Shown one piece after another: positions 15,201-18,200 of a stretch of 64,000 nucleotides of DNA (the first letter of the stretch is position 1; every line of letters starts with the position of its first letter). The position numbers are program-made. The DNA lies in assembly GCF_051903065.1 (NCBI RefSeq), contig NZ_CP178438.1. The stretch is one strand, 5' to 3'. Source of the DNA: Escherichia coli (GTDB lineage Bacteria; Pseudomonadota; Gammaproteobacteria; Enterobacterales; Enterobacteriaceae).

Positions 15201-18200
15201 CACCGTTCTGGAAGCGCGAAGCCACGCCGGAGGGCGACCGCTGGGTCGAAGCCCGGGAAAGCGATCAGCAGGCGGCAAAACGCTGGTAGTTTTTTGTTAG
15301 CCGGATAAGGCACCGCTGCGTCCGGCAATTTCACCGCTCAGTACATGCGTTTACGCTGCGTCGATGCACAGCCTCATCATTTTGCAGTATCCTTAAGATA
15401 TTCCTTATATCTTCAGGAGATCGTCATGGACAGATTCCCACGTTCTGATTCAATTGTACAACCCCGGGCTGGCTTGCAAACTTATATGGCGCAAGTCTAT
15501 GGCTGGATGACCGTTGGCTTGTTGCTGACCGCATTTGTTGCCTGGTATGCGGCTAATTCCGCGGCCGTGATGGAGCTGTTGTTCACTAACCGTGTCTTTT
15601 TAATCGGTCTGATCATCGCGCAATTAGCATTGGTTATTGTGTTATCAGCGATGATTCAAAAGCTGAGCGCAGGTGTAACGACGATGCTCTTTATGCTTTA
15701 TTCGGCGCTGACGGGTCTTACGCTTTCCAGTATTTTCATTGTTTATACCGCTGCTTCTATCGCCAGTACCTTCGTCGTTACTGCCGGGATGTTCGGCGCA
15801 ATGAGCCTGTACGGTTACACCACGAAGCGCGATTTAAGTGGCTTTGGCAATATGCTGTTTATGGCGTTAATCGGCATTGTGCTGGCATCGCTGGTCAACT
15901 TCTGGCTGAAAAGCGAAGCATTGATGTGGGCAGTTACCTACATCGGCGTGATTGTCTTTGTCGGACTGACGGCGTATGACACTCAGAAATTGAAAAATAT
16001 GGGTGAGCAGATTGATACTCGCGACACGTCGAACCTGCGCAAATATTCCATTCTTGGCGCGTTAACCTTGTATCTGGACTTCATCAACCTGTTCCTGATG
16101 TTGCTGCGGATCTTCGGCAACCGCCGTTAAATTCTCTTCTTCCTGCTGATCCCGGCCTGGTGCCGGGATTTTTTCGGATTATATAAAGGCTGTTTCGCTC
16201 ATTTTCATGAGAACTCAGTCGCTGCAAATGCCACACTATCCGTATGCGTCAATTCAGGGATAGATAACTCATTTGAACCGTCAATTCGCTGTCACTTACT
16301 TGCCCGGAAAAAACCGGCCCCTCAAAGGGTGGCTGGTAGCTGGCGGGATAAAACACTATTGCGATTTTATTCGCTTGTTTCGGTTTCCTGCCATGAACGC
16401 TCTTGTGCTTGTCTGGCCCAGGCATTCACGGTGCAGGTAATGGACGCATATTGAAGAAATAAAATTATGAAAGTGATAAAGATAATTATTGCGATTACAG
16501 GTGTTATGATTATGGTGATGGCACATGACCTCGGTCACGAGATATATACGTCATATTTCAGGCCGTCAAGTCACGGAGTTGGTTTGGGATTTATCCGCTT
16601 TTATATGCTTTTTGTTCTCCTCCCCGTGGTATTCCTGACGCCATTTATAGCAAATAAGTACACGCACACACTATCTTGTATTGCAATATTATATTTATTG
16701 TTTTCGTGGGGCGGTTTGCATCCATTGCGAGTTATTTTAATGATTTTATCATTCATGCTATCGTATATGTCGGTGTTATTTTTAAAGAAAATTGATGCAA
16801 AAAGGAAATGAAATTCCAGATATATTTAAAAATATTTATGATATTAAACAAGAGAGGTTTTTATGTCATTAGTTTGCACAATAGAAAATAAATATGTTGA
16901 TAAATTTATGGCTATTCTGCTTTTAGGGGTTTTACACTCGCTGGAAAGGGGAGCAGTAACCATAGATGAATCTTAATTGCTTGTTTTCTGTCCTTTTTTT
17001 GCCCGTACTCTACGGAGGAAAGGTTGTGATAAAGAATTACTAGATATAATTTATCATGGTTGTGAGCTTGAAGATATTGAATCGCTGATCCCTGAAAGGC
17101 TCGAGACTGTCATACAAGAACTAATTCTCCAAACAACCGATTTGATCTATACAAAAAGAGATGATTATCCCTTAAGTGATGAAAGGGAAAGCATGGTTTC
17201 CTTTGAATTTAGCAATAATAAGGATTTGCAGAGTGTTTAAAGATAAAACTGTCGCAGCAGAAATTAGTGCATTAATGCTTGAGATTGGTGCGAAATTAGA
17301 TAATTCCGTTTCACTTGTTCAGAAAAGTTGCGATGAATCTGAGCTTAATACTTATCGTTCCGCCGTCGGTGAAATTATGGGGCGCATGTTAATCGACATC
17401 ATGAACCCCATCTATAAACAGCACTCCGAACTCAAACCTGAACAACTTAGCTGAACATTACATCGCCGCTTCATTTTTCGCCCGTAGCTTCTTCGCCTGG
17501 CTTTCCAGCAACAGGTAACAGATCAGCGCCAGCAGCAGCGGGATAAAGTAATACAGCACACGGTAAGCGAGCAGGGCGGCGATAATTGTGCCTTTGGATG
17601 TATGCTCCCCTGCCAGTAATGCGATAAATACCGCTTCCAGCACACCAATCCCCGCCGGAATATGCACGATGACGCCAGCAATACTACTAACCAGCAACAC
17701 GCCCAGTACAAAGAAATAGTTCACGCTTTGACCAAGTAACAGCCAGATAATCGCTCCCATTACCATCCAGTTAACGCTGGAAATCAGCATCTGAGCGAGG
17801 GCGAATTTCCATGAAGGCAGCACCAGCTTTTGCCCTTTGATGGTCATATGGCGGTGCTTCGCGAAAGCGCAAAACCACAAATAAACCGCGATAATCATCA
17901 GTAAGCCAATGCCGAGAATGCGCAGCGTGGTTTGATCGACATACCAGTGATCCGGTAGCTCCACCACGCCTGCGGTAAAGATAATCCCCGCCAGCAAAAT
18001 ATAGCCCAGCCAGTTGGTGGTAATACTGAGCGAGAAAATCCGCGTAATAGTGCTACCGGGCAACCCCAGACGAGAGTACAAACGATAGCGCATACCAATG
18101 CCGCCGACCCAGGTACTGAGTGTCAGGTTGAAGGCGTAGCAGATAAACGACACCAGCATCACCTGGCGCTTCGCCAGTTTGTGACCGCAGTAGAAACGGG

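Follow-up and report, generated by a model that had tools for sequence, protein, structure and literature searches.

The interval between ybhL and ybhN in the window analyzed here, a stretch of 64,000 nucleotides from Escherichia coli contig NZ_CP178438.1, probably constitutes an islet of orphan immunity-type genes, one of them freshly inactivated, and not a toxin/immunity pair. The islet (16175..17437, no strand assigned) was delimited by BLAST against K-12 and by its GC profile, and it carries three small genes: a hydrophobic open reading frame (ORF) of 114 aa, a gene of the DUF3969 family, and a gene of 73 aa. An earlier note on this DNA had proposed that an AT-rich segment replaces ybhM, given as a BI-1 family gene of about 237 aa, and comparison with K-12 bears out each of these points. 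Homology to K-12 MG1655 ends at position 16174, 44 nt past the ybhL stop, and returns at 17438, shortly before the ybhN stop. Between these breaks, 1263 bp of the window stand in place of 889 bp that include ybhM in K-12, and GC content is 0.30-0.40 over 16450-17350, against about 0.47-0.57 in the flanks. The same comparison, in which ybhM is absent, rules out that the segment is ordinary K-12 ybhM sequence. Several ORFs of fewer than 40 codons that the note had listed here found no support.

The clearest member of the islet is the DUF3969 (PF13108) gene, 125 codons on the plus strand (16863..17240), which PGAP (the Prokaryotic Genome Annotation Pipeline) and profile matches identify and which is a pseudogene here. 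The earlier note had taken two overlapping ORFs in different frames, 16977-17240 and 17176-17454, for the halves of a frameshifted gene of about 160 aa. Both mechanical ORFs are present, but they belong to two separate genes, one with a nonsense codon. ORF 16977-17240 continues ORF 16863-16976 in frame, and the sole separator is a TAA at 16974-16976 on the plus strand (codon 38, Glu38 GAA to TAA in DNA alignment with relatives). On a strain 100% identical to the window, PGAP annotates 16863-17240 as a “DUF3969 family protein” with an internal stop and 17233-17454 as a separate hypothetical protein of 73 aa. A frameshift or 160-aa fusion is ruled out by frame arithmetic, by this annotation, and by alignment with intact relatives.

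The nonsense codon itself is evidently no sequencing error but a genuine mutation, recent and specific to this lineage. The O169:H41 and EC42405 strains have GAA at this position in the DNA alignment, and Glu38 is invariant in an Escherichia-centred alignment. FDAARGOS_943 and GDSC2227PM, 99.8% identical to the window, carry an intact 125-aa DUF3969 gene (WP_001602040.1). Because the interval is matched at 100% identity by three independent complete genomes, the stop can be taken as real and resequencing as unnecessary. The intact ortholog matches Pfam PF13108 with E=1.5e-18 over model positions 4-85, and both window fragments match a family profile built in this analysis (1e-21 and 6e-9); the coding sequence of the window copy is interrupted at the TAA of codon 38. 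One expectation of the earlier note, that a gene in the segment was decaying, thus held for DUF3969, broken at 16974-16976. GAGAGG is found 6 nt ahead of the DUF3969 ATG, and the gene overlaps the 73-aa gene by 8 nt (GTGTTTAA), an overlap or a gap of a few nucleotides being the usual layout in relatives. Other E. coli strains and E. albertii keep this two-gene layout. DUF3969 alleles in the slot are highly divergent (dS 0.74-0.92), yet their ratio of nonsynonymous to synonymous substitution (dN/dS) is 0.26-0.34, which indicates that the gene is under purifying selection.

DUF3969 is very probably the immunity partner of a C-terminal, toxin-like domain of about 80 aa; the linkage of the two is observed, and from it we infer neutralization. 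A profile search of 1.84 billion representatives yielded 437 DUF3969 clusters, mainly stand-alone proteins of about 110 aa, the multidomain members being fusions to Barstar, CdiI_4, DUF4176, HEAT or pentapeptide repeats. Starting from DUF3969 proteins, four contexts were reached in which the gene directly upstream terminates in one common domain with the pattern Y-x-S-I-K-D-A-P-x-Y-P-x-G-F ... G-K-W-x-K-V-Y ... S-I-H-Y-F ... V-F-D-V-K. A reverse search with this domain across 100,044 species genomes returned 17 loci, including two that are the query's own Xenorhabdus loci, and in all 17 a DUF3969 ORF lies at most about 70 nt downstream of the domain. These loci span Proteobacteria and Firmicutes (Proteus, Pseudomonas, Xenorhabdus, Gilliamella, Enterococcus, Lachnospiraceae, Thermoactinomyces, Marininema, Neobacillus and Desulfocucumis). 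In three of the loci retrieved the domain follows the Rhs-associated core as the extreme C terminus of RHS/YD proteins; it is also C-terminal in a protein with filamentous-haemagglutinin repeats, and in Xenorhabdus it occurs in short proteins with a signal-peptide-like N terminus. At loci with ExoS-like neighbours, DUF3969 is found in an orphan array downstream of cdiA-cdiI, and in E. coli 042, E. coli EC42405 and E. albertii SUKH-4 immunity genes share the slot with DUF3969. Taken together, the linkage to the upstream C-terminal domain, the Barstar and CdiI fusions and the SUKH-4 neighbours argue that DUF3969 is very probably a polymorphic-toxin immunity protein.

Two further observations concern the family at large. 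The genome of Xenorhabdus yunnanensis XENO-10 contains at least five toxin-domain/DUF3969 pairs, with toxin proteins of 135-160 aa and not C-terminal tips of giant RHS or CdiA proteins, and a sister strain has one degraded toxin copy with DUF3969 intact. The AlphaFold2 model of DUF3969 (predicted local distance difference test score, pLDDT, 92) shows a bundle of helices with strands from the N and C termini as caps, and its AFDB50 neighbours are named “DUF3969 family protein” or are uncharacterized, apart from one unrelated transporter name.

In the window, DUF3969 is an orphan, without a toxin partner and inactivated. A profile search for the toxin domain in all frames of the 64-kb window gave nothing significant, and the seven E. 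coli variants analyzed likewise had no significant match upstream of DUF3969. A related enteric locus has a decayed toxin remnant upstream of DUF3969. On the E. coli record pL65-4 (6.7 kb, filed as a plasmid; 307-1312 and 4413-5219), a decayed toxin C-terminal domain with an internal stop directly precedes a frameshifted DUF3969, which indicates that the toxin family does circulate in E. coli. An RHS core fragment lies on the same record, which may be a misassigned chromosomal Rhs fragment.

The hydrophobic ORF that the earlier note had described is present at 16467..16811 on the plus strand; it encodes 114 aa with four hydrophobic segments, is not annotated by PGAP, and is intact in the O169:H41 and EC42405 strains. 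It probably encodes a genuine small protein of the inner membrane. In a comparison of the window with EC42405, identity is 97.1% over the ORF region and 92.3% and 90.2% in the noncoding flanks (Fisher p=0.003). Among 5.8 billion proteins its only relatives are E. coli copies. A tblastn search of plasmids recovered one homolog, on Vibrio aerogenes plasmid pLMG19650, with 32% identity over the full length (4e-6; pairwise E=3e-20); the Vibrio protein (122 aa) shares the motif W-G-G-x-H-P-L-R with the 114-aa ORF, and its gene shares 4 nt with the stop end of a 264-aa gene, itself located after a type VI secretion system (T6SS) PAAR gene, a placement that is classic for immunity genes. No similarity was found between the 114-aa ORF and YbhL, YbhM or the other BI-1 paralogs. 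The possibility that it is a diverged BI-1 fragment is ruled out by the lack of similarity to four BI-1 paralogs and by its placement downstream of a ybhM relic. It also shows no sequence match to membrane-embedded immunity families. From its size, its segments and the position of its homolog, we tentatively regard it as a candidate membrane immunity protein, an assignment that we hold somewhat short of probable.

Over positions 3707-5348 of pLMG19650 the order is the PAAR gene, the gene for the 264-aa protein and the gene for the 122-aa four-helix membrane protein, a trio that looks like an uncharacterized T6SS effector-immunity pair. The 264-aa protein has no recognizable domain and no matches. 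The Vibrio membrane gene is absent from one annotation table, and another search lists a hypothetical protein over it.

The third gene (17233..17454, plus strand; PGAP hypothetical protein WP_001602041.1) encodes 73 aa from a GTG start, which is ATG in relatives, and its coding sequence is intact and overlaps the DUF3969 stop by 8 nt. Its family comprises 25 clusters, of which all that bear a species name are Escherichia or Shigella. More distant homologs were found in a metagenome (one, 61% identity), in Salmonella records (57%) and on Burkholderia replicons (42-47%). The AlphaFold2 model (pLDDT 86) is a two-helix hairpin (helices 5-32 and 35-63), a fold without a PDB match, and searches of Pfam, PDB, NCBIfam, PADLOC and PHROG returned nothing for the protein. 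Its dN/dS of about 0.32 points to purifying selection. We take it for an independent small accessory gene, possibly encoding another immunity protein or a regulator.

The contexts of the distant homologs are varied. The 61% metagenomic homolog is a single-gene cassette (3603-3824) in an integron array on a JGI metagenome contig (L040, 1-10824), which has about 17 attC-like repeats of 81 nt (GCCTAAC...GTTAGGC), one small gene per cassette, and also a gene with a T6SS_Tdi1_C immunity domain. The 57% Salmonella enterica homolog (L048:5900-7200, a short record filed as a plasmid) is flanked by fragments of SymE-like ORFs and of IS3-type transposases only. The Burkholderia context was uninformative, the ORF list of these high-GC replicons being noise.

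Upstream of these three genes, a 55-codon ORF (16273..16440, plus strand) is evidently the scar of a deletion that took out BI-1 paralogs, including ybhM, with no clean replacement. Positions 16131-16313 are 82-84% identical to positions 463-646 of the PT62 locus, which comprise the spacer and the first ~40 nt of an extra BI-1 paralog that some 700 E. coli genomes carry between ybhL and ybhM, and positions 16349-16430 share about 72% identity with the final ~80 nt of K-12 ybhM. The ORF thus joins the 5' end of the extra paralog (first ~13 codons) to the 3' end of ybhM (last ~30 codons). Its translation, LNRQFAVT...LVLVWPRHSRCR, begins like the LNRQSTAT... of the extra paralog, and its C terminus, ...LVWPRHSRCR, parallels YbhM ...ITLVWQRHTRF. 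As a chimera of two BI-1 genes it implies that BI-1 genes were deleted. None of the three islet ORFs matches Pfam BI-1 (PF01027), whose proteins have about 235 aa and 7 transmembrane helices. The earlier statement that nothing here resembles the ybhL paralog is correct for the ORFs it listed and fails at 16273-16440, where the BI-1 relic lies.

Among 5426 complete E. coli genomes, 5405 contain K-12-type ybhM sequence, 40 the cassette of DUF3969 and the 73-aa gene, and 12 the arrangement of the window (at least 80% of the interval). The cassette is always chromosomal and was in the ybhL-ybhN slot at every locus opened. The slot is a mosaic. PT62 has ybhL, an extra BI-1 gene, ybhM, DUF3969 and a 75-aa gene; E. 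coli 042 has a ybhM pseudogene, DUF3969, a 152-aa gene, SUKH-4 immunity, the 3' remnant of a second DUF3969 and the 73-aa gene; and EC42405 has DUF3969, a 154-aa gene and SUKH-4, without the 73-aa gene. An IS1 (RM9088) or an IS2 (AHM8C212RI) lies between DUF3969 and the 73-aa gene in two others. In E. albertii, four tandem BI-1 paralogs are followed by DUF3969, a 70-aa gene and SUKH-4. These variants, E. albertii included, show that the cassette is ancient within the genus and that most E. coli no longer have it.

Two of these loci show further detail. Just upstream of the 73-aa gene of E. coli 042 (L006:4448-4578), the 3' fragment of the second DUF3969 is accompanied by a copy of the junction between the 73-aa gene and ybhN, and these fragments look like traces of cassette displacement by recombination. 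In E. albertii (L043-L045, 1509-6668) the four BI-1 paralogs follow moaE, the fourth, for which Pfam records no hit, being 37% identical to YbhM; the slot lacks ybhN, clsB and ybhP, and DUF3969, the 70-aa gene and SUKH-4 abut ybhQ.

The surroundings of the islet have the order moaE-ybhL-[variable stretch]-ybhN-clsB, as in the 100%-identical RefSeq chromosome of strain ECNB21-M121. The ORF list places moaE at 14837-15289 and ybhL at 15427-16130. The 3' flank of ybhL (16131..16174, plus strand), with a terminator-like GC hairpin, is the last stretch shared with K-12 ahead of the breakpoint, and ybhN (17458..18414, minus strand; ORF list and PGAP annotation) forms the conserved right-hand flank. 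Positions 16131-16862 are 99.7-100% identical to O169:H41 strains, whereas the adjacent ybhL (15427-16130) is only 97.2% identical, a contrast that suggests that the islet passed between lineages by recombination. A search for RNA genes with Rfam gave only a subthreshold SorX match at 16119-16175, on the ybhL hairpin (22.4 bits against a gathering score of 46.6), which is almost certainly due to chance. PHROGs and PADLOC models for prophage and anti-phage defence returned no matches for any of the three islet proteins, and a phage or defence origin of the islet was rejected on this result.

Several results weigh against reading the segment as an islet of orphan immunity genes. The ~80-aa domain matched nothing in profile searches of Pfam, NCBIfam and PDB sequences; Pfam, NCBIfam and UniProt give neither it nor DUF3969 a name that refers to toxins or immunity, and the literature searched made no mention of DUF3969 or PF13108. 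The DUF3969 model had generic structural neighbours only, none of which ties it specifically to a known immunity fold. For the 114-aa ORF, the dN/dS of 0.42 derives from only 10 changes, an ORF of at least 114 aa arose in 82 of 2000 composition shuffles, making its length marginally unusual, and a metagenome scan added no homologs, so that its immunity reading depends on a single distant homolog. The 73-aa family is never next to DUF3969 outside Escherichia and occurs once as a lone integron cassette. A promoter and terminator scan of the segment gave nothing beyond shuffle expectation.

Similar considerations bear on the alternatives. It is unlikely that the islet is simply nonfunctional, decaying DNA in which the 114-aa ORF arose by chance and the other genes are drifting to loss. 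Such an account would fit the DUF3969 pseudogene in this strain, the IS1 or IS2 insertions in others, the absence of the cassette from about 99% of E. coli genomes, and a 114-aa ORF that PGAP leaves uncalled and that is equaled in length in 4% of shuffles. It sits poorly with the dN/dS of about 0.3 that DUF3969 and the 73-aa gene both show although alleles within the genus have diverged deeply (dS up to 0.9), with the presence of the cassette at the same site in E. albertii, and with a 114-aa ORF that has a full-length Vibrio homolog and is more conserved than its flanks. At the other extreme, the slot might be a previously unrecognized, acquired interbacterial-defence islet of Escherichia, with at least three unnamed immunity families and SUKH-4 protecting non-armed strains from attackers in the gut; DUF3969 would then act against a new RHS- or CdiA-borne toxin domain and the four-helix membrane protein against a PAAR-linked effector, and the 73-aa hairpin would be an integron traveller. 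We consider this fuller account rather doubtful.

The earlier note had favoured a toxin/immunity-type pair or a decaying accessory gene. The content of the islet does belong to the world of toxins and immunity, and decay is present; no toxin is, and the membrane ORF is unlikely to be one. Small hydrophobic proteins can be toxic, and the 114-aa ORF lies 51 nt upstream of the DUF3969 gene, which lends some appeal to a model with the membrane ORF as the toxin and the downstream soluble protein as its immunity protein or antitoxin. The 160-aa soluble protein of that model does not exist, however; the 114-aa ORF is missing from most loci with DUF3969, including those of PT62, 042 and E. albertii, and it stays intact in strains whose DUF3969 is inactivated, contrary to what an antidote role of DUF3969 would predict. 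Because its sole distant homolog holds the immunity position after PAAR and putative effector genes, the 114-aa ORF is itself not a likely toxin, and we regard the model as extremely improbable. Little more can be said for DUF3969 and the 73-aa gene as an addiction pair resembling type II toxin-antitoxin systems, which we judge very unlikely. Their 8-nt overlap or close spacing is kept in E. coli and E. albertii, and the 73-aa gene has homologs in an integron cassette and on short Salmonella records that are filed as plasmids, typical homes of such systems. Neither protein, however, matches a toxin or antitoxin family of Pfam, NCBIfam or PADLOC; outside Escherichia the partner of DUF3969 is the upstream toxin C-terminal domain, never the 73-aa family; two other genes separate the pair in E. 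coli 042; and strains survive both the DUF3969 nonsense mutation and IS1 or IS2 insertions between the two genes.

An islet of orphan immunity-type genes remains the reading we prefer, and it can be cast as a model. The ybhL-ybhN gap would be a small hypervariable slot of Escherichia, occupied by tandem BI-1 paralogs, by a cassette of small AT-rich immunity-type genes, or by both. In this strain a deletion evidently removed the BI-1 paralogs, including ybhM, and left the 55-codon chimeric scar; three small genes remain. The four-segment membrane protein of 114 aa may provide immunity against a T6SS effector acting in the membrane or periplasm. DUF3969 would be the cognate immunity protein of the ~80-aa toxin domain carried by RHS- or CdiA-like proteins, here partnerless and recently knocked out by the stop at Glu38. 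Orphan immunity genes of this kind would shield a cell that lacks the toxin from neighbours delivering the matching one, and in this lineage the protection afforded by DUF3969 would have been lost.

Two modest points are new here: DUF3969 is assigned to an unnamed toxin domain, and this slot of Escherichia is recognized. DUF3969 thereby gains a testable role, as the predicted immunity partner of a domain found across Proteobacteria and Firmicutes on RHS- and CdiA-type carriers, and the slot appears as a small hotspot in which orphan immunity-type genes accumulate and decay. For annotation, the segment contains no frameshift; DUF3969 evidently carries a real lineage-specific nonsense mutation, the BI-1 relic records the loss of ybhM, and a 114-aa membrane gene was probably missed by PGAP. 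If confirmed, these findings would add one more toxin-immunity family and one E. coli islet to the study of interbacterial competition, and no concept would change. Orphan immunity genes in variable slots are a well-known kind, and the segment is a rare, already annotated variant within ordinary strain-to-strain variation.

The closest counterparts of the islet are the orphan immunity genes and arrays associated with T6SS, contact-dependent inhibition (CDI) and Rhs systems, which are known from Vibrio cholerae immunity arrays (PMC5361080) and from gut Bacteroidales (PMC12247911). Like them, the islet consists of small, toxin-less genes in a strain-variable slot of mosaic composition, with remnants of displaced modules, such as the DUF3969 3' fragment before the 73-aa gene of strain 042, and with a recognized immunity family, SUKH-4, in the slot. 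Unlike them, it lies between housekeeping genes, unattached to a T6SS, CDI or Rhs locus, and is tiny (two to three genes), with one gene inactivated.

Pairs of a polymorphic-toxin C-terminal domain and a cognate immunity protein fall within a framework that Zhang, Aravind and colleagues reportedly set out in 2012. Elsewhere, DUF3969 resembles the immunity member of CdiA-CT/CdiI and Rhs-CT/RhsI pairs (CT, C-terminal toxin domain) in being directly downstream of a C-terminal domain or fused to Barstar or CdiI_4, whereas in the window it has no toxin partner. The 114-aa ORF is similar in size to the membrane-embedded immunity proteins of pore-forming colicins and of membrane-targeting T6SS effectors, shares with them three to four hydrophobic helices, and has a Vibrio homolog that overlaps the stop of the gene next to a PAAR gene; it differs in lacking a sequence match to membrane-embedded immunity families and in having one informative context only. 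With K-12 YbhM, of the BI-1/YccA family (PF01027), the islet shares its chromosomal position and a decayed BI-1 relic, but none of its three ORFs is a BI-1 gene, and the 114-aa ORF, downstream of the ybhM relic, is unrelated.

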